Virus record (IMG/VR): IMGVR_UViG_3300044846_003365
Coordinates: 15,719 to 79,718 of that record
Reading direction: 5' to 3' (one strand)
DNA length: 64,000 nucleotides
DNA from: a virus
Below, piece by piece: positions 30,067-47,584 of this stretch (its first letter is position 1; each line of letters begins with the position of its first letter). A program made the position numbers and the translations under genes. A model generated the notes under the pieces. That model saw only the letters and a program-made list of their open reading frames with translations, made no database searches and was not told the DNA's origin.

Positions 30067-30248
30067 TAGGCTACAACAATCGTTCCAGTTAGAGACCAGC
30101 TCACCTTAGCCCTCTTGTCGCCTTCAAGACCCTTTAGAGTTGCCTCTAATACTTCCTGAGCCTTCTCGTAGCTGTGAACTTCATAAATCGGCTCTATTGT
30201 CCCAGTTGCGCTCTGAATTTTTATTGCTATTGAATTTATATTTACCAT
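30066..30248 (-). CDS. Hypothetical protein
   Basis: AGAAAGGA RBS; coupled to the next gene by TAATG. Confidence 0.6.
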   Translation of the reverse strand: MVNINSIAIKIQSATGTIEPIYEVHSYEKAQEVLEATLKGLEGDKRAKVSWSLTGTIVVA

Positions 30249-30359
30249 TTGTTTCCTTTCTCTCGGTATCTATACTATAAAGCTTTTTTAGCTTTTTGTC
30301 AAGTTTATTTGGGAAAAAGAAAACCCCGCATCTCTGCGGGGTAATCTTATGGTCAGTCT

Positions 30360-30995: not shown

Positions 30996-31298
30996 TTGCG
31001 CCTACCTTTCCTTTGAGAGTAATTTCTCGGCGTTTATTGGTTTGGTTCTCCCAATCTTGTATTCAGTTATAAACGACTTCATCTCTGAAGTCGTGTTTAT
31101 ATTTTACCTCACCTAGCTTCTTTTTTCAAGTTTGAACCCCCAAATCTGACAAAAAATCTTCCTAGATGCTAGTAAAACACTAGAAAGTAAGGAAAAACCC
31201 CTTTTGTTTCGAGTTTGGGCGTTTTGCGCGTGGAAAAAGACAGACCCTTCCCGGTCCCTCCTCCAGGGCCTGGAAGAAGAATTACATAAGAAAAAACC

Positions 31299-31499
31299 CT
31301 AAGAGTCGAAATCTCTTAGGGCTTGTCGCTCGCTGGCGTTGCGAGTTCTAGCTCGCTTCTCTCGCCTATTGGCGTGAGAGCCATTAGCACCTGAGCTATT
31401 ACGCTGAACTAATAGCGTGTGTAGCTGAAATGCCTCAGCCTTGCGTCTAGCATCATTTACTAAACCCAGCGACTGCTTCTTTTTCTTTGCCATACTCAC
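31299..31499 (-). CDS. Small basic hypothetical protein
   Basis: GAAAGGTGG RBS; Arg-rich C-terminus. Confidence 0.55.
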   Translation of the reverse strand: MSMAKKKKQSLGLVNDARRKAEAFQLHTLLVQRNSSGANGSHANRREKRARTRNASERQALRDFDS

Positions 31500-31964
31500 A
31501 CACCACCTTTCTAATAATTAGCGTATCCGTTGGCTACCCGTCTATAATAACACACTACACACCCACCCGTCAAGTCCTGTGGCGTGTGTGGCAAAGGGGC
31601 GTGCCGTCAAGTAGTAAAGGGCGTGCCGTCAAAAAGGGTTGCCCCCCACTAAGTATCGAGAAAGAAAACCTTAGTGAGGGGCGTGCCGTTGGGAAAAAGT
31701 GGTGGAACCCAACGGCGGTTGGTTGCGTGGCTATGGGGGATAGCAAACCGCAACCAAGTCTATTTAGTAATTTTCATCTACCCAATCAATTACATCTTGT
31801 AGCTTATCGGCTGAACTGACAAACTTTAGGAACTCGCCGTCTTCCATTAGCAAGCTGGACATTACCGTTGTTGCGCTTTCTACTTCTCCAAGCACCACCC
31901 GTAGGCTCAGCGTGCTTAGCAGTTGTCCCGTTGAAATCATTTTATTCCTTTCGTCATTTATATT

Positions 31965-32252
31965 CTACACCCGTGCCGTTGAATTGTCAAGTTCAACTTC
32001 CCAAGAGTAAGGAACCCGAAGCTCTTCTCTTTCCATAAGCAAGCCCGCCTCTTGAACAATTACATAGCTCGGCACATCAAGAGCGTAAGCTATGTTCTCA
32101 ACTATGTCTGAGGAAGCTTCTTTCTTGCCTCGCTCAACTTCGCTGAGATACCCAAGAGAAATGTTTGACTTAGTAGACAACTGCCTAAGAGTCATACCAA
32201 TCCTGTTCCTACGCAAGTGAACTATGTGTCCAATAGATTCGTGTAATCTCAC
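31965..32252 (-). CDS. XRE-family regulator, ClgR-like
   Basis: TLRQLSTKSNISLGYLSEVERGKKEASS closely resembles the actinobacterial ClgR HTH. Confidence 0.8.
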   Translation of the reverse strand: MRLHESIGHIVHLRRNRIGMTLRQLSTKSNISLGYLSEVERGKKEASSDIVENIAYALDVPSYVIVQEAGLLMEREELRVPYSWEVELDNSTARV

Positions 32253-32623
32253 TCGACAATCCTTTCATTTCCGTATTCTGCTTGTAGAACTTTTGCTTGC
32301 CCAATCGCATCATCTAGCGAGTGGTAAGGCTCGGAATAATATTCCGAATCCTTGCTGTCCATAACCTCGAACCAAGAGTTGTTTACCCAAGTAAACATCT
32401 CTTCTCCTAAAGCGTGAAACTTTTCTAAATCTTCATCTGTCTTTACGCCAATACCTTCGAGCTGGTCTGTGTAGCGAATTACAATCTGGCTCTCCAAGTC
32501 TGGAGAGTAGTGAATACGCATCTCGCCATTACGAATAACATAAAAGCGTGGCTGTTCGGAATCTTGCCAAACTAGCTCGTGCCCTGCTTCGTTCGTGTAG
32601 AACGATGAGTCTTGTCTAATCAA
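32249..32623 (-). CDS. Hypothetical protein
   Basis: Acidic early-region ORF with overlapping neighbours. Confidence 0.65.
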   Translation of the reverse strand: MIRQDSSFYTNEAGHELVWQDSEQPRFYVIRNGEMRIHYSPDLESQIVIRYTDQLEGIGVKTDEDLEKFHALGEEMFTWVNNSWFEVMDSKDSEYYSEPYHSLDDAIGQAKVLQAEYGNERIVE

Positions 32624-32900
32624 CTTCTTCCTCCCTAATCAAAATGAAATCGTTTGGTGTTGTTTCTTCGCTGTAATACTCGTCAATAGTTTCGCCTCTG
32701 TGCTTGTGGACATAAGCAAATACCCAACTATCAAACGCATACCAATCCTTGTCATCACTTAGCAAGCCACTATCCAAAGCTTCATCTTCTTCTTTGGTGT
32801 TGATAATTCCTATGTTTACGGCAACAGGAGCCTTGTCCTTCGGGTCGTCAAGAAATCTCATATACGCCCCAACTACTTCAATGTCGTCTGGTGTAATCAT
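32616..32900 (-). CDS. Hypothetical protein
   Basis: AGAAAGGA RBS and promoter upstream. Confidence 0.65.
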   Translation of the reverse strand: MITPDDIEVVGAYMRFLDDPKDKAPVAVNIGIINTKEEDEALDSGLLSDDKDWYAFDSWVFAYVHKHRGETIDEYYSEETTPNDFILIREEEVD

Positions 32901-32938
32901 TATTGTCCTTTCTCTAAAACAATTTTATCAGGTATAAA

Positions 32939-33184
32939 CTAATTTGTCAAGTTGTATGACTGAAGCAAGCTCGCGAGCGCGTCCTCTCGCTCAACAAACT
33001 TTTCCCTAAGGTCTTCGTTGTCTCGATAGCTTAGCCAGTTGTTGCTCAGCTCGTCCCAAGCTACTTCGGAATCAAACTTTGCGTCCAAGGTGTCAGGGTC
33101 TACTCCCCAAGCGTTGCTTGACTCGTCCCACCTAACTACAAAGTGATACTGAATACTTTTTCCTGTTGCTATTGCGTTTGTCAT
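32939..33184 (-). CDS. Hypothetical protein
   Basis: ATGA overlap with the upstream gene. Confidence 0.6.
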   Translation of the reverse strand: MTNAIATGKSIQYHFVVRWDESSNAWGVDPDTLDAKFDSEVAWDELSNNWLSYRDNEDLREKFVEREDALASLLQSYNLTN

Positions 33185-33456
33185 ACTCTAATTTCCTCTC
33201 CTTGGTCGTTTACTACTACAAACTGATTCTCTAAAGCTATGTATCCATCGTGGCTAGTTGTGTCCTCGACATAGTCGATGGCATTACTACGCACATACTC
33301 TAGAAACAATTCCTCATCGAACAGGTCTGTTCCATTGTCGGCAAGTATTTCTAAATACTGCTCTAGAGTTTGCTTGGTGTCCCAAGTCAAAGTTAGTTGG
33401 GCATTTATTGTCTGCCCAACCTTTTTTACAAATTCATTTACAATCTTGTCTGACAT
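33181..33456 (-). CDS. Hypothetical protein
   Basis: GAAAGGAG RBS. Confidence 0.6.
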   Translation of the reverse strand: MSDKIVNEFVKKVGQTINAQLTLTWDTKQTLEQYLEILADNGTDLFDEELFLEYVRSNAIDYVEDTTSHDGYIALENQFVVVNDQGEEIRV

Positions 33457-33644
33457 TTGAACTCCTTTCTAAAGTTCGTGTGCTTCCCAGTCGCCAGTAA
33501 AACCTTCGGCTTCAGTTTCGTATTCGTCCTGTTGCCCATTAGTAATTACTTCGTAAGCTTTGTTATAAGCTTCATCTCTGTCCTTTGCCTCAACAGTTGT
33601 GGTGTGAAATACTGTTTCATAAATTCTCACTTCCCACTCAGCCA

Positions 33645-33896
33645 TTAGTCCTCGTCCTCTTCTTCTTCATCTGAAGACACAAGTCCATAAACATAATCGT
33701 TTACAGTTTCACGAGCATCGTCCCATAGACTTTCGTGGTCAAGGTCATCTGCTGTTTGGTCGAACTGCTCTGCTGTTGGGCTAGGTGTGCCATCAGCAAA
33801 TTCAAAATGCTCTGCCAGAAAATACTGAAAAATAATTGACTGGTCTTTGTCCTCAATCTGTTCCAACTGAGAAATCAAATCTTTTACTGTTGCCAT
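33645..33896 (-). CDS. Hypothetical protein
   Basis: GAAAGGA RBS with TTGACT/TATAAT promoter. Confidence 0.65.
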   Translation of the reverse strand: MATVKDLISQLEQIEDKDQSIIFQYFLAEHFEFADGTPSPTAEQFDQTADDLDHESLWDDARETVNDYVYGLVSSDEEEEDED

Positions 33897-33959
33897 TTGC
33901 TTTTCCTTTCGTAGTTGTTTTATTATAAAGGTGTTTGACTAAAAAGTCAAATCCATTTG

Positions 33960-34295
33960 CTAGGAAACCCCTAGCTTTTTGGTTGCGACTTCGTAGACTT
34001 TTTCTAGTCTTGTTCTGACTGAGTCGGCAAGTTTTAGGTCGTCCAGCATTTCGCCAAAGTGCCCTGTGATAACTTCCAAGTCATCGCCATCAAACTCTGC
34101 TTCCTCAAAGTGCCACCAAAGTCCATCATTACCAGTTAGCCCAGAAAACTCTGAGTCCAACATTTTCTTTAGGTAGTCTGACACTTGTTCGTCAGTTAGC
34201 TTGCTTGCGTGTTCGTTCTCCTCTGGATAGAACTCGAACTGAACATTTAGAATTACTTTTCTTTCAGTCATTAGTTCTCCTCCTCGACAGTCCAC
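33960..34295 (-). CDS. Hypothetical protein (probable start at MTERK)
   Basis: GAGGAGGAG RBS lies inside the listed ORF. Confidence 0.55.
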   Translation of the reverse strand: MDCRGGELMTERKVILNVQFEFYPEENEHASKLTDEQVSDYLKKMLDSEFSGLTGNDGLWWHFEEAEFDGDDLEVITGHFGEMLDDLKLADSVRTRLEKVYEVATKKLGVS

Positions 34296-34620
34296 TCAAC
34301 ATTGTCCCAGCTCACGCCATCAAGGTCATTACTTCTTCTTGACAGTAAGTCAATCAGCGTGTCAAGTTTTGTATCTAACGCCTTCAGGTCTTCGACATTT
34401 GTTGCGTAATAGTCGAAGGTAATTCTTCCGCTAAAATCTTTCATCTGCTTTTTCCTTCCTAGTTGTTAGCAAACTTTTTTATTGACTCTACTTGTTTGTC
34501 GTCATCGTGTTTCCAATAGTCTTCGCAACTATCGCAAATCTGATATTCTTTTTCTTCATCGAGAAACTTTATGTGGTGAGTTGCTGAGTCGAAGCAACCT
34601 GACATATCGCACTCGAACAT

Positions 34621-34998
34621 TTACTTACCTGCCTGCTGTGATAAGAATCTCGAAGCGTCAAAAGTAAAAGCAAGATGACTCTTCTCAAATACTCTGTCGT
34701 CCTCTAGGCACTCAGACAAAACTGAAACTCTTGCGAGCGCAAGTGAAACGCTAGGGTAGTATTCGACCCACTCGTTCACAACATAGTCAGTCCAAGTAAG
34801 CTTGTAAGACTTCTCTCCACCTTTGGGTAAGAACTCTGAAATCTCTACGCCACACTCGCCAAATAAATCTAATGAAATTTTTTCCATAACCACTTTCCTT
34901 CTTTCTGTCATTTTTGTTGCTTGTATAATAATACAGGCTAGCTTACCTTTTGTCAAGTAAGCTAGCCCGCATTTTTTAGTATTCTGAGTCGCTCTCAA
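34621..34998 (-). CDS. Hypothetical protein (true start internal, near MEKIS)
   Basis: Promoter and RBS lie inside the listed ORF. Confidence 0.55.
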   Translation of the reverse strand: MRATQNTKKCGLAYLTKGKLACIIIQATKMTERRKVVMEKISLDLFGECGVEISEFLPKGGEKSYKLTWTDYVVNEWVEYYPSVSLALARVSVLSECLEDDRVFEKSHLAFTFDASRFLSQQAGK

Positions 34999-35275
34999 TC
35001 CAAGCGTCTAGATGGTGATTCTCAACCAAAGCTCTTACTGGAGCTGTGTTGCTTCCTTTGTAGGAAGTGCCTTCTGGCAGTTCTACTTCGGAATCCCAGT
35101 CGCCAGCATTAGCTAGCTCAATAGCCTCGATACAAGGCTTGACCATAAACTTCGGAACTGGAGGATAGTGATTACCCTGTAAGTGCCACTCTATTTGTTG
35201 GCTTAGTGCCAACTCGCTTGAGGCGATATCAACTGCTGTTCTGAATCCCATTGGAGTCCTTTCTTTAGACTCCAT
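34976..35275 (-). CDS. Conserved actinophage hypothetical protein
   Basis: WHLQGNHYPPVP..CIEAI..HHLDAW motif. Confidence 0.7.
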   Translation of the reverse strand: MESKERTPMGFRTAVDIASSELALSQQIEWHLQGNHYPPVPKFMVKPCIEAIELANAGDWDSEVELPEGTSYKGSNTAPVRALVENHHLDAWIESDSEY

Positions 35276-35310
35276 AAGGATAACAAACTATTTGGTAAAA
35301 GTCAAATCTA

Positions 35311-35586
35311 TTACTTGACAACTTTCATTGTTGAAAAGTCTGGCTTCGCCTTTAGCTCACCAATAATGTTGTCGTGTCCTTCGGCAAAGTTCTCTCTGCT
35401 GTCTGACTTAGCAAACAGTCCAGCAAAGGCACTAGAGGCAATCTGACGAGCTTCGCCATCAGTTTCAGACTCTACTTCCAGCTCAACTACAATCTGAACC
35501 TTGCGAACCTTCTTCTCGAAGCCACCTTCGAAATCTTCTTTTTTAGCCATAAGTATCAACTCCTTTTTATCGAACTTATCTAACAA
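35311..35586 (-). CDS. Hypothetical protein
   Basis: AAGGAG RBS before MAKKE. Confidence 0.55.
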   Translation of the reverse strand: MLDKFDKKELILMAKKEDFEGGFEKKVRKVQIVVELEVESETDGEARQIASSAFAGLFAKSDSRENFAEGHDNIIGELKAKPDFSTMKVVK

Positions 35587-35719
35587 TTAGTTTACACGCA
35601 AAAACGAGATGCGTCAAGGTCGCAGTTGCGTGGAAAAAACCCTACCCTTCGACACGAGCGACCTTCGCATTTTCGGGAAAAGAAAAACCCCCAGCTTTCG
35701 CTGGGGGCTTTCGCTAGAA

Positions 35720-36013
35720 CTATCTTGCGACTTTTACAAAGTCGTAATCAGTTGTGTAGCGAGTTGCTTCGTAGACCTCTGGGAAGTCGGTAGCCAACTT
35801 CTTTGAGTCTACATAGGTGTTGGTTCGTGATACCAACTTGAAAGCCACTACGCCACCAAAGGTAGCCTCTGTGGACTGACCTAGAAGCTGACGCAACTTA
35901 GCCTCTGAGTCCTTCTTGAGAGCCTCTGCCTTGTCTGCCAAAGCCTTAGCCTCCACGAAGTCTGCTAGAGCCTTGCGAGCCTCTGAGTTGAAACCAAGTT
36001 CTAATGAACTCAT
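35720..36013 (-). CDS. Coiled-coil protein resembling the C-terminus of YqaJ-type recombinases
   Basis: Start MSSLEL at 36013 after a structured leader; DSKKLATDFPEVYE motif. Confidence 0.55.
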   Translation of the reverse strand: MSSLELGFNSEARKALADFVEAKALADKAEALKKDSEAKLRQLLGQSTEATFGGVVAFKLVSRTNTYVDSKKLATDFPEVYEATRYTTDYDFVKVAR

Positions 36014-36197
36014 ATGAAACACCACTTTCGAAAGTTTCAGACTTTTCAGTCTGGGTCGCTGGAGAAGTCCTTTTGACTTCTTTCCCAACTAATACAACTA
36101 TAAAGCATACCTACGACATTTGTCAAGTTCATTTGAACTTTTTTTATAACAGTTTGATAACGGAAACCCCGCCCGAAAGCGGGGCTTCCAAATCAAG

Positions 36198-36404
36198 CTA
36201 GGACACTACTTGGTAGTCCACAGTAGGCACAACAGAGCTGGCATAAACGCCTAGCTCGTAGATACCAGCGTGTCGAACTGCCAAGGACTGAGCATCCTCA
36301 CCCTGAAAAGTTTTGTTCTCGCTTGGAAAGTCGTGAACCAAAACTGTCCACACACCAGCTTCCTCGAAAACTGAAACTCGCTTGCTCGCATATGAATTGA
36401 CCAT
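36198..36404 (-). CDS. Hypothetical protein
   Basis: GAAAGGTGG RBS after a structured leader. Confidence 0.6.
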   Translation of the reverse strand: MVNSYASKRVSVFEEAGVWTVLVHDFPSENKTFQGEDAQSLAVRHAGIYELGVYASSVVPTVDYQVVS

Positions 36405-36688
36405 ATACTCGACCACCTTTCGACCACTAGGGTCTTAGAGCTGGAGAGCTTCTTGTGAAACTCGTTCCCAACTTTGCTACTCCTATATTTTACCAGCAGC
36501 CTACGACATTTTTACTATAAAACAAAAAAATATTTATAACAGTTTGATAACGGAAAAGTTTGTGATTTTAGCACGACCCACTGACATTTCTGAAACTTTT
36601 ACATAAGCCAAAGGGTCTAAGTTTTTCCACGCAGGAGGTTTCCAAAAAAAAATGCCAACCCTTTCGGGCTGGCACTCTTTTCTATTTC

Positions 36689-37339
36689 TTAGAGAACTTT
36701 GTAAAGGTTATACTCGTCAGTTTTATCCCAGTCTACATTTCCTTCTTCGTCTAGGACAGCACCAGCGTTCTTGTAATCTTCGGAAGTAATCTCTCTGTAA
36801 GTGTCGGAAAGTATTTCCCCACCTTCAATCTCAGCCCTACCAAAGAAAGCCATACCTTCTTCGGCATACTGATAAATTATTCTTACATCATAGACTTCAG
36901 AAAGTCGTCTAAAGAACTCTAAAGCTGGACTCCACGCAGTAGAAGAACCAATCCCAAGACTGAACTTTCCATTACCCAAATCTGTAATCTCGGTAATTGA
37001 AACTCCACCAAGTTGGTCTAAGTCCCACTTAGTTCCCCAGTTTCCGATATTCCAGTCATACCAGTTGTCAAAAGTTCCAGAAGAGCCTTTAGCCCACTCC
37101 AAAGTCTTTTGCTCGATAGACTTAGTTTTATCTTCTTCTACACCAATAAAGTTTGGTGTTGGGAAAAAGTTATCAAAAGAAAAGATGTTCGGCTTCTCTT
37201 CAAACTTTTCGTAGTTCATAATTTCTTTGTTCCAGTCGCTTCCAATTTTGAAAGTTCCTTCAGCACCCTTTGCCAATATTGTTTCTAGGGTTTCTTTGTC
37301 CCCAATAATATCAACATCTAAATCACACCAGTTTGGCAT
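36689..37339 (-). CDS. DUF1281/YubB-like protein
   Basis: MPNWC...WYDWNIGNWGTKWD...TAWSP...YAEEGMAFFG. Confidence 0.75.
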   Translation of the reverse strand: MPNWCDLDVDIIGDKETLETILAKGAEGTFKIGSDWNKEIMNYEKFEEKPNIFSFDNFFPTPNFIGVEEDKTKSIEQKTLEWAKGSSGTFDNWYDWNIGNWGTKWDLDQLGGVSITEITDLGNGKFSLGIGSSTAWSPALEFFRRLSEVYDVRIIYQYAEEGMAFFGRAEIEGGEILSDTYREITSEDYKNAGAVLDEEGNVDWDKTDEYNLYKVL

Positions 37340-37480
37340 ATTAGTTTCCTTCTTTCTCTGTAATTGCTATTTCGAGTTTGGTTATGTTTGCTATCGCTTG
37401 GTCAAACTCTTCCCAAGTTTCAAATGTCAAAGTAATCATTTTTTCCTTCCTCGTATTTCTATTATAGAGCTTTTTTCAAA

Positions 37481-37738
37481 TTAGTCAAGTTCATAATCAT
37501 AATCTTCGTAATTCGCTTCTTCGTAATCTCTTTTGTCTTCGGCAGTCGAGCTACGGAAATGAACCACGCCACAAAACTCGCACTCCACTTCGTAGTTGCC
37601 CCAGTCGTCAGTTGCGGAAAGATTTGCTTCATTAGTTTTTCCGCACTCTTCGTTTCCGCAAACAAACTCGTCATACGGAACTTCTACTGAATAAATACCA
37701 GACCCCATCATTGAACCTGCTGGATAATTGCTTGACAT
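37481..37738 (-). CDS. Zinc-ribbon hypothetical protein
   Basis: CxxxxC...CxxC pattern; SNYPAG N-terminus. Confidence 0.6.
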   Translation of the reverse strand: MSSNYPAGSMMGSGIYSVEVPYDEFVCGNEECGKTNEANLSATDDWGNYEVECEFCGVVHFRSSTAEDKRDYEEANYEDYDYELD

Positions 37739-37761
37739 TTTTTCCTTTCTTATTTCTTGGT

Positions 37762-37974
37762 CTACAAGTAGCAATCGCTACACTTAGGGCTTCGCTCTAA
37801 GCTCTGAATCCACTCGTGAGTTTCTTGGTTTACTGTGTATTCGCCACCACACTTGTAGCAAGTAAAGTCATATCTAACTTCACCCTTTGGGGCTACTCTG
37901 CGATTACCACGCAAAGCCAAGTCGTTTAGTTCCTGCTCGCTTAGTTCAGGATTCTCTTTTGCTAATCTACTCAT
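37762..37974 (-). CDS. Zinc-ribbon hypothetical protein
   Basis: CYKC...CSDC; GAAAGGA RBS. Confidence 0.6.
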   Translation of the reverse strand: MSRLAKENPELSEQELNDLALRGNRRVAPKGEVRYDFTCYKCGGEYTVNQETHEWIQSLERSPKCSDCYL

Positions 37975-38137
37975 TTGTTTCCTTTCGTTAGTATTCAGTA
38001 TAAAGCTACCTACTGACATTTGTCAAGTTGTTAGGTAATTCTTTTCTTCGTGTTTAGAAACTACACCCACCCACCGACATTTTTGGAATTGTCAAAGGGT
38101 AGCTCTTTTTTCACGCAGACCCCCCGAAGAAAAAGTT

Positions 38138-38239
38138 GAGCAGTTTTACAACTTGCTCAGGTTGTTATTCCTGTATACCTCACCAATAGAGGTGTTTAGG
38201 AAACTTAGGTAAGCCTTTTTACAACTTGCTCAGGTTGTT
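38138..38239 (-). repeat. Two copies of a 23-bp repeat with H-type pseudoknot potential
   Basis: TTTTACAACTTGCTCAGGTTGTT is identical at 38144-38166 and 38217-38239. Confidence 0.8.
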
Positions 38240-38468
38240 TTGTTCGCTTCAGCTTTAGAGTCTTGCGACGCAGTATTTGGGCGAACAAAGCTTTATTACT
38301 TTTCAGCTTCAATAGCTAAAGCAGTTTCCCACTTTTTGCTATCGTAAGCTTCGTCAAACCTTTTGTAATCTTCGCTTGACCAATCTTTCGTGTCAATCAG
38401 AAGAATCTTCCCGTGTCCATAGCTTTCGTCGTCAGCTATCCAAAGCGTGTTAGGTGAAAGTTCTTTTA

Positions 38469-38879
38469 TCAAATCTTCACCTCTTCCTTACGCTTTCTAC
38501 TAGCCCATCCGTCTCCAGCGAACTCCATCTCGTAGTCCCAGACCTTACCAAGAGCAACAGCGACATCCGTTGAGATGTCAGTCCAGCTCTCGCTCTCACG
38601 CCATAAGTTGCTAAGGTCAGGGTAAGTTGGTAAGTCCTCATCCGTTGAGTAGTCCCCAAGCACCAAGACTCTATCGCCTGTCCAGCGACCAGACAAGCCG
38701 TCAAACTTGTTCCAGTCTCCACCACCCCTTGCCGGTGAGGTCATAAGTAAAAGATATAACGCGTCAGACATTGAACCCTCGCAACCCGTTTGCTCGTATT
38801 GCTTAGCACCCAAGCCGAGCGGATAAGAACTAACCTGCTCTTGCTTATCAAGATTTACTAATTTGTGATACTGTCCCAT
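38469..38879 (-). CDS. Conserved phage hypothetical protein
   Basis: MGQYHKLVNLDK...GRWTGDRVLVLGDY motif. Confidence 0.7.
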   Translation of the reverse strand: MGQYHKLVNLDKQEQVSSYPLGLGAKQYEQTGCEGSMSDALYLLLMTSPARGGGDWNKFDGLSGRWTGDRVLVLGDYSTDEDLPTYPDLSNLWRESESWTDISTDVAVALGKVWDYEMEFAGDGWASRKRKEEVKI

Positions 38880-38978
38880 CTGTTTCCTTTCGTCGTTGTT
38901 TTATTGTATACCTTATCCGTCTCTTTGTCAAGTTTATTGGCAGGGGGGAGAGAGACAGGTTCTCCCCCCGCCAAGCCT

Positions 38979-40826
38979 TTAGCGGTTCTGCTTTGACAGG
39001 GCATCCGCAGCTTTCTGACCAATCAGTTCAGCTACCTTGCCCAAGCCGTCGTCAGTTGTGGCAGAAACAACTTCTGCACCGTGTTGCGCTAGCCCCTTTA
39101 CCGTGTAGTCGTCAGGGGAGAAGGTAATCCACAACACTCCAACGCCACTATCCTTACAAGCCTTTAGCCACTCCGTAGCCTTCTTGGCTTGCTCGTAGCG
39201 GTAGTGTGCATCAGACACAACAACCAACAAGCGAGCGCCGTCAGAGTGCAACAAGTTCAGCGAGCCATCCAAAGCTTGAAAGCCTTTGTCAAACTCTTCT
39301 GTCGAGTCTGGCGCTGTGTAAACATTGACGGCATTTAGGTGTTGCCCCGGCTTTAGAGTCGCAAAGACATCTTGACCAAAGTAGACCATAGCTGTCGTTG
39401 CTTGAACCCTGCGACCTGCTTCTGACAAAACCCAAGCTGTGGTAGCTAAGGGATTCATAGCAGCACCCATAGAACCAGAGATATCAACCATCACGCCAAC
39501 CTTTAGTTCAGGGTCGTCAGTATGCTTTCTAACAGTTCTTTCCCAAGCTTCGACTCTGTGGTTCAAGCCCATTGACTTGTATGCAGCGTTCTGAACCATA
39601 GCACGAGAGCGCAACCTGCCCTGCGGAACAAAGCTTCTAATCTCTGTCTGCGAGCGCTCACGATACTTAGCTTTCTCAAGTAGCTTCGCAACCTTGACAG
39701 CTGCAGCTCTCTCTTCTCCAGTTGGAGTTCTAGTCTCCCTTAGAGTCGAGTTAGTCCCATTGTTTTCTCCGGGACCAGAGCTGTTAGAGAAAACTTCTGA
39801 CGCAACATCCTTATGCTTTTTCTGTTGCTTAGAAACTTCGGCACGAGCCTTAGCTTCTTCAATAGCTTCTTCAACATCCATAGCATCAAAAGCTTCTGAC
39901 AGGTTAGAGATTTTTACAATCTCTCTAGCTTCTTCAACTGCTTCTTTCAAAGCTTCGGCAAACTGCTTTGCAGCAGAGCTACCAGTTCCATTACCAGAAC
40001 CATTAGAAGAAGAACTTGATTCAGAACCTTCGCCATCCTCTTGCTCTGAACCTTCTTCGCCCTGCTGTTTCTCTCCAGCATCCTTACTAGCCTTGTCCAC
40101 AATCTCAACCCAGCGTTTCGCTAGTGGATAAAGTTGTGTGGCATCAGCGTGGCTATCGTGAGCTTGGAACTCAAGCCACACTTCACGCAACTGGCTAAGA
40201 GTGTCCTCTCCCATTACGGAAACAATCAACTCACGAATAGGCTCAACTTCACTCTCGTCTAGAACTCCAGCATCAACACGAGCGAGAGTTAGACCAGCAG
40301 TAAACGCAGCGCCACGAACAGACGACAAGTTTTCTGCAACTGAATCCATATCACCAATCGCAAGTTCCATAGCAGAAGAGCGAAGAAAAAGTTTATTCTC
40401 TGGCATAGACTTTATTCCAAAGGATTCAATTCTTCCTTCTTCCAAAGTCTGCAAAGCTTTATACTCAACGCCACTAAGTTCGTCAAAAGCTTTCTCCAAA
40501 GAGAAACGAGAATAGCGAGCGTGCAAAGCTTCGTGGTAAATTGCACCACAAGCAACTGGATGCTCTAGCTGTCCCAATCTAGTATTCAAGTTAGAAACTA
40601 ATTCCGGGCCAATGTTAGGAAAAGCTTTGGCTGTGTTGATTTCGATTTCGGCGCTCGCAGGGTTGAACAAAGCCGGGTGGTCGTGCGAAATGCTGTCGCC
40701 CATAGTTACAACTAGGTCGCTACGAAAAGACCAATCGTTTACAAGACGACCAACGACTGCACCAATGCGCAACCAACTAGGGTCGTTCTCTTTACGAGTC
40801 TCCAAGTCCAAACTAAAGTGATTCAT
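38979..40826 (-). CDS. VWA-domain protein with HExxH motif (MoxR partner)
   Basis: HEALH; MIDAS motif DISGSM; VVSD; start MNHFS after CAGGAG. Confidence 0.85.
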   Translation of the reverse strand: MNHFSLDLETRKENDPSWLRIGAVVGRLVNDWSFRSDLVVTMGDSISHDHPALFNPASAEIEINTAKAFPNIGPELVSNLNTRLGQLEHPVACGAIYHEALHARYSRFSLEKAFDELSGVEYKALQTLEEGRIESFGIKSMPENKLFLRSSAMELAIGDMDSVAENLSSVRGAAFTAGLTLARVDAGVLDESEVEPIRELIVSVMGEDTLSQLREVWLEFQAHDSHADATQLYPLAKRWVEIVDKASKDAGEKQQGEEGSEQEDGEGSESSSSSNGSGNGTGSSAAKQFAEALKEAVEEAREIVKISNLSEAFDAMDVEEAIEEAKARAEVSKQQKKHKDVASEVFSNSSGPGENNGTNSTLRETRTPTGEERAAAVKVAKLLEKAKYRERSQTEIRSFVPQGRLRSRAMVQNAAYKSMGLNHRVEAWERTVRKHTDDPELKVGVMVDISGSMGAAMNPLATTAWVLSEAGRRVQATTAMVYFGQDVFATLKPGQHLNAVNVYTAPDSTEEFDKGFQALDGSLNLLHSDGARLLVVVSDAHYRYEQAKKATEWLKACKDSGVGVLWITFSPDDYTVKGLAQHGAEVVSATTDDGLGKVAELIGQKAADALSKQNR

Positions 40827-40964
40827 TTTTTTCTCCTGTCTCTGATTCACTAAGTAAATTGTAAAGCTTTTAGCTTCATTTGTCAAGTTCTAGGGGGTGT
40901 GTGGTGAGTGCCTAAACAACTATGAAAAAGACACCCACCCCACTTCTGCCTAATCTGGAAGGAT

Positions 40965-41996
40965 TTAGATTTTGGCAGGTCTAGCTTCTTCACCATAAAC
41001 TCTGGTAAAGACATCTGACACAACAGTTCTGTCCATCTCTGGCGCAGAAGCAATTAGATTCTCAATCGCCCACTTCGTTCCAAAAGACTCGGAAAGAGTT
41101 TTGAAAGTTAGTAGCTCTCGCATCTGCGGCGCCCAAGAGATTTCGTTAGAAGCTTGCTTCTTAGCGAGATTCTGGGCAACAGTAACTGCTGGAGTCGGAA
41201 CGCCAAGCTTACGAGCAAGAACCCAATCAGTAGTCATTTCTGCTTGGATACCAAATCGAGAAAGCAAAGCTTCTGACAAGCGAACACCCGGAGCGTTAGG
41301 GTTAGTTGCAGCAACTACATAAAAGCCTTCTTTAGCTTTTACAGTTCCACGCTCTGGATTGGCAGTAACGGCAATCTCTCGACGACCATCCATCAGACCA
41401 TACACAACTGACAAGACCTTAGGGTCAATAAGACCAATCTCGTCAATCAGTAAAGCCTTACCCTGCTCTGCAGCTTTGACCAGCGGCCCATCAATCCACT
41501 CGAATCCACCACTTGGAGTCTGAACATAGCCACCAACAAAGTCGGCAACTTCTGTATCGCCAGTTCCAAGGACAGTAAACAAGTCTGAACCAAATGCAGC
41601 TTCGACCATAGCAGTCTTACCAGTTCCCGGTGCGCCATACAGTAGAACATACTGGTTAGCTACACGAGCTTTCTTTAGGACTTCAACATCACTATGCTCT
41701 CCCCAACTGCGAGCAAAATACTTCTCGCCATTAGGTCGCTCATAAGAAGATTCGCCTTCTAGAGTTTCTGCTTCCACAATCTTTGCCTTCTTTGGAGTGG
41801 AGTTAGCATCCCTGTTTCTAAGAACAGCTTTGCCAAACTTTTCGTCGTAGTAAGACACTAGCTTAGCATCACCAACTAGAGAGTAGTTTTGAGTAACAGT
41901 ATCTCTAATTAGCTTCGCCAAGTCCAAACCTGGATTAGCAGCGTCAAGTCCATCAAGAACTTCTGTGTTTCTATTTACAATCGCAATTTCAGTCAT
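40965..41996 (-). CDS. MoxR/CbbQ-type AAA+ ATPase
   Basis: GAPGTGKT, LLIDE, ATNP, LSEALLSRF. Confidence 0.9.
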   Translation of the reverse strand: MTEIAIVNRNTEVLDGLDAANPGLDLAKLIRDTVTQNYSLVGDAKLVSYYDEKFGKAVLRNRDANSTPKKAKIVEAETLEGESSYERPNGEKYFARSWGEHSDVEVLKKARVANQYVLLYGAPGTGKTAMVEAAFGSDLFTVLGTGDTEVADFVGGYVQTPSGGFEWIDGPLVKAAEQGKALLIDEIGLIDPKVLSVVYGLMDGRREIAVTANPERGTVKAKEGFYVVAATNPNAPGVRLSEALLSRFGIQAEMTTDWVLARKLGVPTPAVTVAQNLAKKQASNEISWAPQMRELLTFKTLSESFGTKWAIENLIASAPEMDRTVVSDVFTRVYGEEARPAKI

Positions 41997-42015
41997 TTTA
42001 TCTTTCCTTCCTTGA

Positions 42016-42519
42016 CTAAGCGCTTTCAGTTTCGAATAGGGACTCTCCCCATCCAAGACCAGTTCTTGCTCTAAGAACTCGTCGAACTAGAGAGTTTGGA
42101 GTCTTGCCACTTGACAGCTCTGATATCTCTAGGTGAGAAACTTCTACCACTATTGGCTTCTTGAACAAAGTCCAACCCAATCTTGTGAAATCTCGTATTG
42201 TGTGGATGGAGTTGTAGGACAAGTTCGCAACGAAGAACTCTTTTACAGAAGTCTCTGACTTCTGAATAAGCACTCCATCAGAATCTCTTTCAATAGTTGA
42301 TTCTGGATTTGCTACATGCTCTCCCAAAGCCTTGAAGATACTCCAAGTCTTTCTAGGGTGAGAAGTAGAAATCACTCTTCGCATTACACGAGAAGCGACC
42401 AGCTTGTTATCTATCCCAATTACTGCTGGGGTAAAGATAACTTGCGAAGTATAAGAACCCTTGCGGAACTCTAGATACAGAGCTTTACCAGCAGAGTCCT
42501 TTGGACTTTTTTCACTCAT
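42016..42519 (-). CDS. Hypothetical protein, first gene of the MoxR operon
   Basis: GAAGGA RBS; TTGACA promoter upstream. Confidence 0.7.
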   Translation of the reverse strand: MSEKSPKDSAGKALYLEFRKGSYTSQVIFTPAVIGIDNKLVASRVMRRVISTSHPRKTWSIFKALGEHVANPESTIERDSDGVLIQKSETSVKEFFVANLSYNSIHTIRDFTRLGWTLFKKPIVVEVSHLEISELSSGKTPNSLVRRVLRARTGLGWGESLFETESA

Positions 42520-42595
42520 AGTTGTTTTCCTTCTTTCTGTAGATTTAGATTATTGCAGACTTTTTCTGCTTTGTCAAGTCTTTCGACTAGACTTT

Positions 42596-42889
42596 TTACT
42601 CGTCGTCGTCTTCGACTTCAACTTCGACTTTTTGTTCCTCAATCGAAAAGCCATTGTATTTTTCGATAATTCGGAAAAGTTCTTCCCAAGCATATTTGTT
42701 TAGCTCGTCTTCGTCATAAATGTAGACATCATCATCTATCCAAGTCTTGTCTGAGAGTTGGACATTTCCTACTGGTTCATAACTTATGGTGGTCTCCCAA
42801 TTAGTCTCGTCATAAAAACCAGACACTTCTAATCTGAAACCATCAAGCTCGATGCTTGCTACTGCTTTGGTCTTTGTAGTTGTTTTCAC
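42596..42889 (-). CDS. Hypothetical acidic protein
   Basis: GTG start after GAAAGGA. Confidence 0.6.
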   Translation of the reverse strand: MKTTTKTKAVASIELDGFRLEVSGFYDETNWETTISYEPVGNVQLSDKTWIDDDVYIYDEDELNKYAWEELFRIIEKYNGFSIEEQKVEVEVEDDDE

Positions 42890-43001
42890 GTTTTCCTTTC
42901 GTCGTTGTAATACTATAACATAAGCTACTGACATTTGTCAAATCGCTTTTGTTGTGCCTGCTGACACAACTTTTACATTGTGCCAGCAGCCACTGACATT
43001 C

Positions 43002-43520
43002 CTAGAAGTGGAAGTCCACTGGGACTAGGAACCAATCAAGCTCACCTTCGGCAATCTTTTTGCGAAAGTGTTCTGTGTTAGTGCTGTCGTGTTCTAGGTC
43101 GAAGAAGTAGGAATTGAAGTCCCAAGTGCCTTGCAACATATCAATCATCTTCTTCAAGGGATACAGCTCAAAGTCATACTGCATTTCCCCGGTATAGCTG
43201 TCGAGCTTTGCTTCTAGGTCAACACCTTTTTCTGCCAAGCTCTTGCGATAACCATTGAACTCATCAACACGATTTGAAATTGCTTTTGCAATCAGCTCGT
43301 TGAACTTAGCTGGGTCATCATTCCAACTAACGATGTGGTTTGGAGAACTTGCGTAAGGGTCGCCTTCAACAAATCTTCCACCACCAACTACGAACCAGTC
43401 GTACCAAGTGCCACTTGAGCTTTCAAAGTCTCCCAACCAACGCTGAAAAGTATCTTCGACGTTCCTCAGTGCTTCATCGCTGTTGTCAGCTTTTACTGCT
43501 ACATACTGCAATACATGCAT
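43002..43520 (-). CDS. Conserved phage hypothetical protein
   Basis: MH...WYDWFVVGGGRF...VPVDFHF family motif. Confidence 0.7.
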   Translation of the reverse strand: MHVLQYVAVKADNSDEALRNVEDTFQRWLGDFESSSGTWYDWFVVGGGRFVEGDPYASSPNHIVSWNDDPAKFNELIAKAISNRVDEFNGYRKSLAEKGVDLEAKLDSYTGEMQYDFELYPLKKMIDMLQGTWDFNSYFFDLEHDSTNTEHFRKKIAEGELDWFLVPVDFHF

Positions 43521-43624
43521 ATTTGTTTTTCCTTCCTGTTGCTTTTATTGTATCAATTTATTTTTCAAAAGTCAAATCTATTTTGGTGAGAGTTGGGGGA
43601 TTGCTCCCCCACTCCCGGCGCTCG

Positions 43625-44071
43625 CTAATCTATGCGAGCGTCCACCCAACATTCGAAACCCTTCGAACGCAAGTGTTGCGCCATTCGATTTGCGATGAAG
43701 CGCTTACGCTCGAAGCTCTGGCCAGCGTCAGCAAAACCATATCGCTCGAAAGTGTAAAGGCCAACGCCCTTAGCTCTGCCAAACGACCACCACTTCGAAC
43801 CTAGCTTTTCTCCCATTGGGCGCTCTTGCACTAGCCACTGGGCGAACCCACTGCGACCACTCTCAAGAACTACAGTGGCAAAACCACAAACGCCACCTTC
43901 GACAAACCAAGTTTTCTGGTTTGGGTCAACATCATTGCCAAGTGGTGTGCTTGGCGAACCAACGATGATTGGAGTTGGAGCTGGGCACTCAGCGAGTGCT
44001 TTGTGCGAAACAGCCTTCAGCTCGTTGAACAGAGCTTCGTACTGCGCACTTTTACTGCTAATTGTTTTCAT
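43625..44071 (-). CDS. Conserved phage hypothetical protein
   Basis: GVCGFA...QSFERK...RID C-terminus. Confidence 0.7.
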   Translation of the reverse strand: MKTISSKSAQYEALFNELKAVSHKALAECPAPTPIIVGSPSTPLGNDVDPNQKTWFVEGGVCGFATVVLESGRSGFAQWLVQERPMGEKLGSKWWSFGRAKGVGLYTFERYGFADAGQSFERKRFIANRMAQHLRSKGFECWVDARID

Positions 44072-44131
44072 GGGTTCCTTCCTCATAGAATTATAGTTTA
44101 CACTATTGTCTGACAAAAGTCAAATCGTGTC

Positions 44132-44440
44132 TTACTCGTTTTCATCGTCGTAGTCAGCAAACTGCTCAACAACTTGGATGTATCCATCATTTGGGTTTTC
44201 TGGAGTTGTGTGGACAGCGTTGATAAATCTCAAGCCACAAGATTCCTCATACCACTCGACAACTTTGTTTGCCATTTCCTCAGGGTCCATTTCGGCGGAA
44301 CTGATTAGTGGGTCGTAACCCCAAGAATTCATCAAGGTCATTTGTTCGTCATCCATAAGAATGTAAATCTTGTGGCAAGTGTCGAACGCAATTCCTTTGG
44401 CTTCTTTGGTGTATTCCAAAATTTCAAAAGCATCAACCAT
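44132..44440 (-). CDS. Hypothetical protein
   Basis: IAFDTCHKIY...WYEESCGLRFI; AGAAAGGA RBS. Confidence 0.65.
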   Translation of the reverse strand: MVDAFEILEYTKEAKGIAFDTCHKIYILMDDEQMTLMNSWGYDPLISSAEMDPEEMANKVVEWYEESCGLRFINAVHTTPENPNDGYIQVVEQFADYDDENE

Positions 44441-44584
44441 TTTTTGTTTCCTTTCTGTTGCTTTTATTATACAACCCCCCACTGACAAAAGTAATCCCTT
44501 TTTGGGTTATGTTATCAATTTGTTATAAATGCGAAAGGGTGCCAGTTTTTTCACGCAGGCTCAGCGTGGAGAATGTTTGACCCT

Positions 44585-44812
44585 TTAGGAGTCTGGGTTT
44601 AGAACTGGCGAAGCACAGCTAACGCAAACGACCCACTCAGAGTCGTCATCAAGAACAATTACATAAGCTTTGAAGGAAGTGTCTGAAGACGCGGTCCCTA
44701 GGGGTTCTCTACATTGAGCACAAGACTCGTCGTCGTAAGTGTCAAGTCCGGCAAGGTTGGCTAGTCTCTCATCGCTGGTGTTAGATATGACGTGCATTTC
44801 AATGTGGCGCAT
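44585..44812 (-). CDS. Zinc-finger hypothetical protein
   Basis: CAQC...CVSC; TATGAT 6 nt before the ATG suggests leaderless. Confidence 0.55.
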   Translation of the reverse strand: MRHIEMHVISNTSDERLANLAGLDTYDDESCAQCREPLGTASSDTSFKAYVIVLDDDSEWVVCVSCASPVLNPDS

Positions 44813-44858
44813 GGTTTTATCATAGAGCACCATCCGTTAGGTTATTTTGAGGAAGACC

Positions 44859-45251
44859 TCAGTACCAACCAATCCACTTGATGTGGTCCCAAGCTCCACA
44901 CGCTTTATCGGAGTACCGATGCACCATGTACTTCCACGTATCGCGTACCTGCAAGTATGGCTTGCCGTTATGGCGGGCCTTCGAGCTCGCTAACTGTCCC
45001 AAGCCGTAGTAGATACCGTTCTGAGCTTTGTGGTTCCAGCGGGACTCGTAATGAATAACTTTGGCAAAGCAGTCCCACTGGCGAGCCGCTCCCTTGCCCG
45101 TTACTGGATGTCCGCCGTTAGCTAGGACGTACGTCTTCGCATAAGCTTTTATCTGGTCGACGGAGGGGGACTTGGGCTCAGCGCTCGCCGTTGGTACGAA
45201 GAGCGTCAACGTCAGTACTGCTACAGTCACTGCAATGGCTAGCCGTCTCAC
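44859..45251 (-). CDS. Secreted lytic-transglycosylase-like protein
   Basis: Signal peptide; QWDC..VIHYESRWN..AQN..YGLGQ..YMVHRY..CGAW..GWY. Confidence 0.8.
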   Translation of the reverse strand: MRRLAIAVTVAVLTLTLFVPTASAEPKSPSVDQIKAYAKTYVLANGGHPVTGKGAARQWDCFAKVIHYESRWNHKAQNGIYYGLGQLASSKARHNGKPYLQVRDTWKYMVHRYSDKACGAWDHIKWIGWY

Positions 45252-45530
45252 TTAAGCGAGCTCGCTAACCCGCTTGCCGTTAACTCCAAGAACATCTAGA
45301 TTGATGCCCAGTGATTTAAAAATTTCAATTGCGGTCTCACGTGGCGTGCCGTTCTCGTTGAACTGAGCAAAGAGACCGTCGACCTCGTCTTTACAAATTG
45401 GGTGCCAAGGTCCTAGGTCGTCATACCACCTCAGGTCATCCGACGGTCCAGCATTAGGAGAGCTTTCATTACCACATGCGCTACAGATTCGCTCGCCATC
45501 TCTCAGGCTCTTGATTACTTTTGATTGCAT
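45252..45530 (-). CDS. Hypothetical protein
   Basis: GAAAGGA RBS; TTGACA promoter. Confidence 0.55.
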   Translation of the reverse strand: MQSKVIKSLRDGERICSACGNESSPNAGPSDDLRWYDDLGPWHPICKDEVDGLFAQFNENGTPRETAIEIFKSLGINLDVLGVNGKRVSELA

Positions 45531-45628
45531 AATTGTCCTTTCGTTTTAATTCACTTTAAACCTTCAGCAGGTTTTTGTCAAGTCTATTTTCGTTGAGGCG
45601 GAAGGGCCCGTGGGCAACTTTAACATAA

Positions 45629-45725
45629 GAAAATCCCCCTCGGCCAGACGAATAGCTGAGGGGGAAATTCCCATGAACAACATAACTAACTAACTAAAGA
45701 AGCCACTGAGCAGGCACCCAGTAAC
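45629..45725 (-). ncRNA. Candidate small RNA A
   Basis: TGTCAG-N10-TAAAAT promoter, no ORF with RBS, ends in a GC hairpin plus U-run. Confidence 0.45.
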
Positions 45726-45761
45726 AAGATAATTTTATCAGGACCCACTGACATTCGCAAG

Positions 45762-46526
45762 TCAAACTTTGACTTTAAAGATTCCCGTTTCTTTTGACAA
45801 ACGCTGAAGACTGTTGAAATCAGGGACCCCGTCAGCTGGAACATAACCGATGCTCCGTTGGAACTTAGCATAAGCACTACGAGTCTTACCGTCGAAGTGT
45901 CCTCGCGGAAGTCGACGTACACCCGTCACTACAGAAAGCGCAAGCTGTACAAGCTGGACGTTTGGGTGCTTCATGTTTGGCTTCACTTGTGCAGGTACGA
46001 TTTCGGGCACCGTTGATGTATTTAGCTCCTCACCATGGCGGGCCGTTAAGTTAAAGTTAGGACGCGCAAACCCTATTGTGTCAAGAGAACTGCGCACCCG
46101 TTTATACACCCCATCATTTAATGCACTCCCCCTTGGCAGGCCGTGACTTACTTGCGCTTCTATAGTAGAGAAAATACCATCCGTTGAGTAGGAGGAGACG
46201 TCCGTCACTATTCCAACATGTGGCGGGCCGAAGTCCGTTACTGTAGACGTCTCAAAGAAAACAATGTCACCCGTCTTCGGAGTCTGGAAGAAGCGTCCGT
46301 TACTTAAGTAACTGCTTAATGCTTGCGGGGTATATACAAACGCGGGTAGTGGCAGGCCGACTTCGCGAGCGCAAACGTCGATGAAGGCACCGTCCCATGG
46401 CAGGCCTTTGCCACTGTAACCGACGGTCTCACCAAAGATGTTAGTCCCGTCCGCACGGGAGGTGTAACCTAAGTAATTCTCGGCGCTCGCCAGAAACTTA
46501 TTTCTGAGCTCTGTCTTCGTTGTCAT
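45762..46526 (-). CDS. CHAP-like plus peptidoglycan-binding protein (WDGAF where WC is expected)
   Basis: AENYLGY..WDGAFID..PKTGDIVFF..HVGIV..TIEAQ; C-terminal GHFDGKTRSAYAKFQ..DGVPD. Confidence 0.7.
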   Translation of the reverse strand: MTTKTELRNKFLASAENYLGYTSRADGTNIFGETVGYSGKGLPWDGAFIDVCAREVGLPLPAFVYTPQALSSYLSNGRFFQTPKTGDIVFFETSTVTDFGPPHVGIVTDVSSYSTDGIFSTIEAQVSHGLPRGSALNDGVYKRVRSSLDTIGFARPNFNLTARHGEELNTSTVPEIVPAQVKPNMKHPNVQLVQLALSVVTGVRRLPRGHFDGKTRSAYAKFQRSIGYVPADGVPDFNSLQRLSKETGIFKVKV

Positions 46527-46686
46527 TCTCTCCCGCTAGTTTTTCCAAAGCTAGTACTAAGTTTACTGCTTCGTTGGCACGGGCCGTCACACGGACGTGC
46601 TCGATTCGCGTGGAGCTCAGCTTGATGTCAGAATGTAGACGCTCTGAGTGCTCTTTCGCTACTTCTATGATATCACTCAGATTCAA
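46498..46686 (-). CDS. Small hypothetical protein
   Basis: Fills the gap between overlapping neighbours (MNLSDIIEVAKEHS...). Confidence 0.45.
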   Translation of the reverse strand: MNLSDIIEVAKEHSERLHSDIKLSSTRIEHVRVTARANEAVNLVLALEKLAGENDNEDRAQK

Positions 46687-47584
46687 CTTTGTCAACTTTC
46701 TTTTCAGGTGTGTCTTCGACAACCTCTGCATCAACAGTATCCTCTTCAGCAACGGGGGCAGATTCCAACACACTAGTGGCGAGCCGTTGCAAACGTTCTT
46801 GAATAACCGATGCTGCAGGTCTAATGTCAATCGTTACGTCAGAGTTAATGTCAAACCCTGCTCTAACTCCAGCACGGTCAAGTATCTCGGTAGCTGCTTT
46901 GAGCTTTACAGGTTCGCTCTCAGCTGAATCCATCAACTGCTCCAGTATGTCAACTGCTGCAGGTGTGGCTTGTGTCAATCTATCCCGTGCCCGTTCAACG
47001 CTATCCGTTGTCTTATTACGTAAAGAACCTAAATGGACCCTACACAAGCCGTCATCTTGTGGACGTCCTCCAGTCCAGAGCTGACATCGGATGCCGTCAT
47101 CCTTGATGGCTTTACATCTGTGAGGGAGGGGGGAGGCCTTACGTCCCAGCTTTAGGCCCTCGTTCTGTTCCTTAGCCCAAACCTTAGTCGAGCCCAATAC
47201 CCACGGAGGAACAATGTTGTCCGCTTCTGCTTCGGCTAGTAAATCGAAGCCCGTTAAGTAATCTGAGTTCTTATTACGGGCGTCCGCAAGAATGGGGGCT
47301 TTCTCTTCTAGAGAGAGCAGACGTTGTTTACTCTGCATCTCTTGGGAGAGGGCTTGGATGAGTCCAGTTGGGACGCCGTTAACTGCGTAAACAGGAATCC
47401 AATTCAGTCGCGCTCGCCGAAGGGCGGAACGGTTTTCAAAGGTGTCGACGCAAATACCTTTATCGGTTTCTTCGATACCGTAAACGCTTAGGTCTGGACG
47501 TAGGTTGGTAGGGGTGTCAACTTGAATCTCAGGGTCAACATCCTTAGCTCCGAAAGCGGAGGAAAGGTCTAGACTGTCTGACAT
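46673..47584 (-). CDS. Candidate terminase small subunit / DNA-packaging protein
   Basis: CKAIKDDGIRC..CRVHLG zinc knuckle plus AAVDILEQLM..SEPVKLKAATEILDRAG helical motif. Confidence 0.5.
   Translation of the reverse strand: MSDSLDLSSAFGAKDVDPEIQVDTPTNLRPDLSVYGIEETDKGICVDTFENRSALRRARLNWIPVYAVNGVPTGLIQALSQEMQSKQRLLSLEEKAPILADARNKNSDYLTGFDLLAEAEADNIVPPWVLGSTKVWAKEQNEGLKLGRKASPLPHRCKAIKDDGIRCQLWTGGRPQDDGLCRVHLGSLRNKTTDSVERARDRLTQATPAAVDILEQLMDSAESEPVKLKAATEILDRAGVRAGFDINSDVTIDIRPAASVIQERLQRLATSVLESAPVAEEDTVDAEVVEDTPEKKVDKVESE

Follow-up and report, generated by a model that had tools for sequence, protein, structure and literature searches.

In a 64,000-nt stretch of DNA from IMG/VR virus record IMGVR_UViG_3300044846_003365, hairpin loops just behind a moxR gene and behind a neighboring gene with a weak VWA signal are complementary to the translation initiation regions (TIRs) of the same genes, including their Shine-Dalgarno (SD) sequences. 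The stretch, referred to below as the window, makes up the last 64 kb, at the 3' side, of a record 79.7 kb long and comes from an uncultured lake-water phage of actinobacteria. Gene-specific complementarity between loop and TIR is a real and conserved RNA feature here, evolutionarily maintained across more than 100 related phage contigs. Judging from the sequences, there is a reasonably good chance that the moxR and VWA cistrons each bear an “anti-start” in their own 3' untranslated tails, displayed in a loop, which would pair with and mask the SD in the manner described for icaR of Staphylococcus aureus. A third gene, immediately upstream of moxR and called gene 1 here, probably has its own anti-start in this phage as well. 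The genes, hairpins, and pairing partners concerned are as follows, in window coordinates.

Gene 1, 42016-42519, minus strand: a 167-aa open reading frame (ORF), directly 5' of moxR in nearly all relatives.
moxR, 40965-41996, minus strand: a gene for a MoxR-type AAA+ ATPase of 343 aa (PF07728 AAA_5).
VWA gene, 38979-40826, minus strand: 615 aa, with a weak C-terminal VWA signal.
Hairpin H1, 40946-40978, minus strand: stems CUGCC/GGCAG and AAUCU/AGAUU.
moxR SD GGAAGGA, 42005-42011, minus strand: partner of the H1 loop, with a predicted probability of being unpaired of 0.69.
Hairpin H2, 40899-40943, minus strand: a G-rich stem with two G.U pairs, and a 15-nt loop.
AAACAACUAUGA, 42516-42527, minus strand: positions -8 to +4 of gene 1, partner of the H2 loop, with an unpaired probability in the top 1% of the transcript.
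Hairpin behind the VWA stop codon, 38937-38974, minus strand: stem GGCGGGGGGAGA/UCUCCCCCCUGCC and loop ACCUGUCUC, with a predicted probability of the loop being unpaired of 0.57.
AGAGACAGG, 40835-40843, minus strand: positions -17 to -9 in the 5' untranslated region (UTR) of the VWA gene, overlapping the 5' part of its AGGAG SD; partner of the VWA loop.

The first-pass annotation of this DNA had described three complementarities between these loops and starts, and all are exact and lie where it placed them. The H1 loop shows the anti-SD UCCUUCC (40957-40963), complementary to the moxR SD over 7 nt and to that of gene 1 over 6 nt, and the 5' arm of this hairpin is made up of the last moxR codons and the stop codon. 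In the H2 loop, UCAUAGUUGUUU (40914-40925) is the exact reverse complement of the 12 nt AAACAACUAUGA at the gene 1 start; these are the two exact copies in the window, and there are no others. Behind the VWA gene, the loop sequence CCUGUCUCU (38951-38959) is complementary to AGAGACAGG over 9 nt. The G.U pairs of H2, two in its fold, are valid on the minus strand only, as had also been noted. Duplex energies are -15.3, -14.2, and -15.8 kcal/mol for the H2/gene 1, H1/moxR, and VWA pairs, respectively, and the comparison with a shuffled background that the annotation had proposed comes out in their favor, with at most 0.15% of shuffled loops reaching energies as good. Both partners of each pair are predicted to be single-stranded, and all partners fall within the most accessible 1-9% of the predicted transcripts; a nested minimum free energy fold of the 1650-nt unit cannot display loop-to-linear pairing, and shows only that the partners are unpaired.

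Complementarities taken from one window alone are nevertheless weak evidence, and could there have arisen by chance. Inverted 12-mers 100-2500 nt apart number 17 in the window vs. 12.4 in shuffles, and inverted 9-mers at the same spacing 896 vs. 726. What goes beyond chance is the placement, a hairpin loop matched to a translation start, together with conservation and covariation in relatives.

For moxR, 80 IMG/VR loci with identical gene order were retrieved through MoxR homologs (56-75% identity), 44 of them non-redundant. The moxR SD region (-22 to +3) was compared with the post-stop region of the same gene, counting exact complements of at least 7 nt, with 20000 permuted pairings as the null. 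Complements of 7-12 nt were found in 30 of the 44 loci, vs. 5.2 expected and a maximum of 13 in any permutation (p < 5e-5), with a duplex free energy of -13.0 for cognate vs. -9.7 for non-cognate pairings. An independent, de-duplicated set of loci from metagenome contigs, in which MoxR is at most 76% identical to that of the window, replicated this (22 of 38 new loci vs. 5.0 expected, p < 5e-5), and 37 distinct complementary cores were seen for moxR in all. In these relatives a hairpin stands straight behind the moxR stop codon, with the final codons and the stop forming its 5' arm, and its loop and the SD vary in step. Examples, given as SD/loop, are GGACGGAAA/UUUCCGUCC, GAACGGAA/UUCCGUUC, GGAGACC/GGUCUCC, GGAAGGAGACUA/UAGUCUCCUUCC, CACAGGGAG/CUCCCUGUG, and CGAAGGAU/AUCCUUCG. 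In 23 of the 30 loci most of the complement sits within the loop of this hairpin, and in most loci the anti-SD starts between -3 and +6 nt from the moxR stop codon. RNAalifold found no consensus in a MAFFT alignment of 23 stop-codon hairpins, whose loop lengths differ and whose 3' arms remain unaligned, and per-sequence folds were used instead. The first-pass annotation had assigned the H1 loop to the SDs of both gene 1 and moxR. This holds for both in the window, but in loci where the two SDs differ the element tracks moxR and not gene 1. The possibility that H1 is aimed at the SD of the downstream VWA gene was rejected, matches to the next gene being mostly 4-5 nt.

In many relatives (L035, L045, L050, L062, L069, L041, and L065-L067), the large hairpin behind moxR shows the loop UAGGUG or UGGGUG. 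Leaders common to several genes of the same phage have the complement, CACCUAC or CACCCAA, close to their 5' end, and the matches may represent a more generic relation between loop and leader.

For the VWA gene, 27 of 43 loci have an SD region complementary over 7 nt or more to the big loop of the post-stop hairpin (p < 5e-5). The longest complement is 14 nt (10-14 nt in several loci, L045, L033, L041, L035, and L003), and most fall in large hairpin loops. In the replication set they were found in 14 of 33 new loci, vs. 6.95 expected (p = 0.0016), and there are 34 distinct complementary cores in all. The sole relative of the window phage among named phages, the lake phage Actinomycetia phage DSL-LC01 (L082, OQ999401.1), belongs to this group: the loop of the hairpin behind its CobT-like gene matches the gene's own leader over 13 nt (AGGACAAGUAAAC) and the SD over 9 nt (positions 5051-5110 and 3185-3200). 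DSL-LC01, a named phage with a complete genome, could be used in experiments. Covariation of loop and TIR in related phages, the check suggested in the first-pass annotation, is therefore strongest for the two matches treated there as secondary, H1/moxR and VWA, and its general claim that the loops are antisense to their own starts stands, with replication, for these two genes; the gene 1 match is considered below.

This relation is not a general property of these genomes. Among 449 other genes in the same loci there was no cognate excess (4.42 cognate vs. 4.30 non-cognate nt), and cognate matches of at least 8 nt come almost exclusively from the VWA gene. Nor was there a cognate excess among the 84 minus-strand genes of the window, where the VWA gene ranks top. 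A genome-wide scheme, with a 3' anti-SD for every gene, was rejected by these two comparisons. Like icaR, then, moxR and the VWA gene each have behind the stop codon a motif that is the complement of their own SD region (in the window 7 nt at moxR and 9 nt at VWA, in relatives up to 12 and 14 nt), and covariation and specificity indicate that the complementarity is kept by selection. One contig from four lake metagenome DNA runs spans the stretch at ~98% identity, and the differences listed lie outside the loops and TIRs.

The 12-nt match between the H2 loop and the gene 1 start, which headed the first-pass annotation, is clade-limited. In 14 of the 44 IMG/VR loci, about a third of lineages, the H2 region and the gene 1 start (-14 to +6) share a complement 7 nt long or longer (p < 5e-5), but the match did not replicate in new loci (3 of 21 vs. 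1.9 expected, p = 0.30) and is lacking in most lineages. It is conceivable, though doubtful, that the 12-mer is a coincidence and H2 merely a structural 3' hairpin, possibly helped along by the motif AAACAAC. This is a recurrent leader motif of the phage, present in several leaders, and a one-mismatch copy of the 12-mer is found in the leader at 33909-33920; these, the failed replication, and the excess of only 17 over 12.4 inverted 12-mers are what such a coincidence would look like. It would not readily account for the significant excess among the IMG/VR loci, for L057 and L061, which have an 11-nt loop match in the same position (-8 to +3) with another sequence, or for the compensatory differences in the pair among L037, L043, and L074, and the other leaders of the window reach at most 8 nt against the H2 loop. 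On these sequence comparisons the H2/gene 1 pair is probably real in this lineage.

If the loops do act as anti-starts, the following course of events would be expected. On a finished, ribosome-free mRNA, the 3' loop would pair with the SD region at the 5' end, 1.0-1.9 kb away, either within the molecule or between copies of one mRNA. The duplex would occlude the ribosome-binding site, leading to less translation and possibly to lower mRNA stability, as in icaR. A ribosome ending moxR, or ending gene 1 just 5' of the moxR SD, would melt the pairing. The 5' arm of H1 is coding, the anti-SD abuts the stop codon, and the stop codon of gene 1 is 4 nt upstream of the moxR SD, which lies in the 19-nt gap behind that stop codon, so translating ribosomes should break the H1/SD pairing. 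Repression should then fall mainly on mRNAs no longer translated, finished or idle, and would cap the output per transcript of a putatively dosage-sensitive ATPase/VWA pair under strong early-type promoters. The role proposed in the first-pass annotation, a shut-off serving as a pulse or dosage limiter or exerted through stable 3' fragments, is plausible by analogy with icaR (PMC3868564) and with anti-SD pairing in Bacillus subtilis (PMC12697547). The full-length predicted fold pairs the gene 1 stop region with the moxR start region (UAGUCA/UGACUG; 41990-42018, minus strand) and leaves the moxR SD in a 17-nt loop, so that its contact with H1 could take the form of a loop-loop kiss.

Several points weigh against a 3'-end brake of this kind. 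About a third of lineages are without the moxR match and ~40% without the VWA match, and to these can be added the failed replication at gene 1. The moxR match in the window is just 7 nt and fits three other SDs of the phage as well; the VWA match is just 9 nt, and full pairing would require some opening of the stem. The placement of 5' and 3' partners on one RNA ending at the hairpins is inferred, the promoters being consensus matches and the hairpins having no U-tracts. In a test for intrinsic terminators, H2 and the VWA hairpin appeared as strong stems without a U-tract, and neither was among the terminator-like sites called. A test for G.U strand asymmetry in the long-range duplexes gave no RNA-specific signature and few G.U pairs, although this test is uninformative here, since purine-rich TIRs and pyrimidine-rich loops favor opposite-strand G.U pairs by composition alone. 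Finally, covariation shows pairing but not its sign, and the effect could be repression, stabilization, or processing.

This last point admits readings in which 5'-3' contact keeps RNases away from the 5' end or the SD region, in the manner of the hbs mRNA of B. subtilis, and so protects the message instead of silencing it, or in which the duplex makes an RNase III site whose cleavage activates or destroys the message. RNase III sites at the 3' end are used by T7 early mRNAs and by lambda sib. The hbs 5'/3'-UTR interaction couples stability and translation (PMC5737220), and the icaR duplex is itself an RNase III substrate (PMC3868564). However, it is the SD itself (TIR -9 to -18) that serves as partner throughout, as expected for blocking of ribosomes, and 7-14 bp would be a short substrate for RNase III. 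Protection or processing seems quite unlikely. A role for the hairpins as stable 3'-derived small RNAs (sRNAs), left over from processing or decay of the mRNA and acting in trans on the starts of new copies as an antisense-like feedback in the style of C-rich-loop sRNAs such as 6C, would draw on the same moxR and VWA covariation. The complements lie in loops of very stable G+C-rich hairpins, typical of antisense recognition and resistant to 3' exonucleases. Pairing in cis is kinetically favored, though, with both sites on one molecule; each loop fits one cistron and not a shared regulon; and no Rfam family matches the region, a search of 38000-43200 with the Rfam 15 covariance models, 6C (RF01066) included, having given three chance-level matches only, far under gathering scores. 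Action in trans is accordingly considered unlikely.

The matches could also be pictured as inverted repeats at the DNA level flanking genes (cassette boundaries, or recombination or protein-binding sites) and not as RNA partners at all, a picture with which their exact Watson-Crick character, few G.U pairs, and lack of a strand-specific signature would agree. It is nonetheless extremely improbable because of the fixed placement, one copy always overlying the SD while its counterpart occupies a coding-strand hairpin loop just past the stop. Moreover, the sequences vary freely among phages, unlike a conserved protein-binding site, the local hairpins use G.U pairs valid on the transcribed strand only, and the loci keep the same genes in the same order, showing no trace of cassette mobility. 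For moxR there is also a more elaborate form of the 5'-3' pairing model, speculative and given little credence here, in which the stop-codon hairpin makes translation dependent on termination, a phage analog of closed-loop mRNA. The SD/anti-SD duplex would keep the moxR start beside its own stop codon, and each ribosome terminating on moxR or gene 1 would melt the duplex and free the adjacent SD, so that ribosomes would be returned to the same cistron while idle mRNAs would lock shut. If true, this would be an on/off switch dependent on translation history, and not a simple brake.

The simple brake, a loop-borne anti-start masking the SD of its own mRNA, is closest to what has been described for icaR, in which UCCCCUG in the 3' UTR pairs with the SD, blocks formation of the initiation complex, and creates an RNase III site (PMC3868564). 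In both, the SD of a message has its complement in a pyrimidine-rich anti-SD of that message's 3' UTR, and the shared logic would be a brake on translation carried at the 3' end (PMC3868564). They differ in that icaR, one bacterial gene, has a 3' UTR of ~390 nt, whereas the phage tails are short, their anti-SDs are presented in loops, and the moxR hairpin is built over the stop codon. Here, too, two or three neighboring cistrons have their own elements, two of these nested at the end of a bicistronic unit, and the evidence is phylogenetic covariation where that for icaR is experimental. In B. subtilis, anti-SD-like 8-mers placed several hundred nt downstream pair with the ribosome-binding site, with inhibition of initiation and faster decay as the outcome (Gill et al. 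2025; PMC12697547), which is the same physical mechanism as that proposed for the phage. Those were synthetic substitutions, and such sequences are depleted from natural genes (PMC12697547), while the phage elements are positively maintained, gene-specific, and extend past the SD core. In the hbs mRNA, pairing between the 5' and 3' UTRs of one mRNA likewise links ribosome loading and RNase access, but the effect concerns access of RNases Y and J1 and stability, and not occlusion of the SD by an anti-SD loop (PMC5737220). The 6C sRNA of Actinobacteria (RF01066) and other sRNAs with C-rich loops are similar in being stable hairpins in which a C/U-rich loop pairs with purine-rich SDs; 6C, however, is a free-standing sRNA with a regulon, and the phage elements belong to mRNA tails, each with a single cognate target, and have no Rfam match. 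Elements at the 3' end also keep a message inert or control it (“retroregulation”) in the hok fbi-tac fold-back, in lambda sib, and at the 3' RNase III sites of T7, systems that need the 3' end to be trimmed by exonucleases or cut by RNase III. In contrast to these, the phage locus has neither a toxin nor an antisense RNA partner.

Very few natural bacterial-type mRNAs regulate themselves by 5'-3' pairing. The authors of the icaR study call that case a singular example (PMC3868564), and recent work suggests that long-range anti-SD pairing is potent enough to have been purged from ordinary genes (PMC12697547). In the phages considered here it is positively maintained and gene-specific, with dozens of compensatory pairs, in a family of freshwater actinobacterial phages that is both large and abundant. 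They offer a phage model, validated by phylogeny, of regulation through 3' untranslated tails, with natural compensatory variants ready at hand, and a hairpin embedding the stop codon makes physical coupling of termination and initiation on one cistron testable. The pairing sits on a MoxR/VWA (CobS/CobT-like) module that is routinely scored as a pair of auxiliary metabolic genes, and hints that the dosage of the ATPase/VWA pair is critical.

The MoxR protein belongs to AAA_5 (PF07728; 2.4e-21, 76.6 bits vs. a cutoff of 22, residues 117-248), and its PHROG matches are to phrog_16448, an ATPase (2.3e-58), and phrog_249, “porphyrin biosynthesis” (9.9e-27). The VWA protein has a weak match to PF05762 VWA_CoxE (17.2 bits, E = 0.0036, under the Pfam cutoff of 26.4) and none in PHROG or NCBIfam; its homolog in DSL-LC01 (OQ999401) carries the annotation “cobalamin biosynthesis protein” (CobT-like). 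Gene 1 has no Pfam, PHROG, or NCBIfam match. Its homologs in L002-L081 are 148-175 aa long, are likewise without a match in these three collections, and adjoin moxR upstream in nearly all relatives. The MoxR/VWA module may have the gene 1 product as its third member.

The first-pass annotation had treated the MoxR-VWA stretch as one operon, but three near-consensus sites of the form TTGACA-17-TAnAAT divide it.

Promoter-like site TTGACA-17-AATAAT, 42549-42577, minus strand: 5' of gene 1, a near-consensus match.
Promoter-like site TTGACA-17-TACAAT, 40858-40886, minus strand: 5' of the VWA gene, a near-consensus match.
Promoter-like site TTGACA-17-TACAAT, 38903-38931, minus strand: opens the next unit and closes the VWA unit.

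Because of these sites, there are likely two units, one of gene 1 and moxR and one of the VWA gene alone, each with its own hairpin or hairpins behind. The predicted transcript start for gene 1 is at ~42542, giving a 5' UTR of ~23 nt, and that for the VWA gene is at ~40851. In one relative, L041, an inserted tRNA-Met (CAT) gene (5053-5127) separates the moxR hairpins from the VWA gene. More widely, the minus strand between 27.8 and 46.7 kb (27800-46700) contains ~20 promoter-like sites of the form CTTGACAA-N17-TAnAAT, before almost every small gene. Many of these have a hairpin before them and the shared leader AAAACAAC[G/T]ACGAAAGGAAA after, and from this recurrence the region appears to be built of cassettes, each consisting of promoter, leader, gene, and hairpin.

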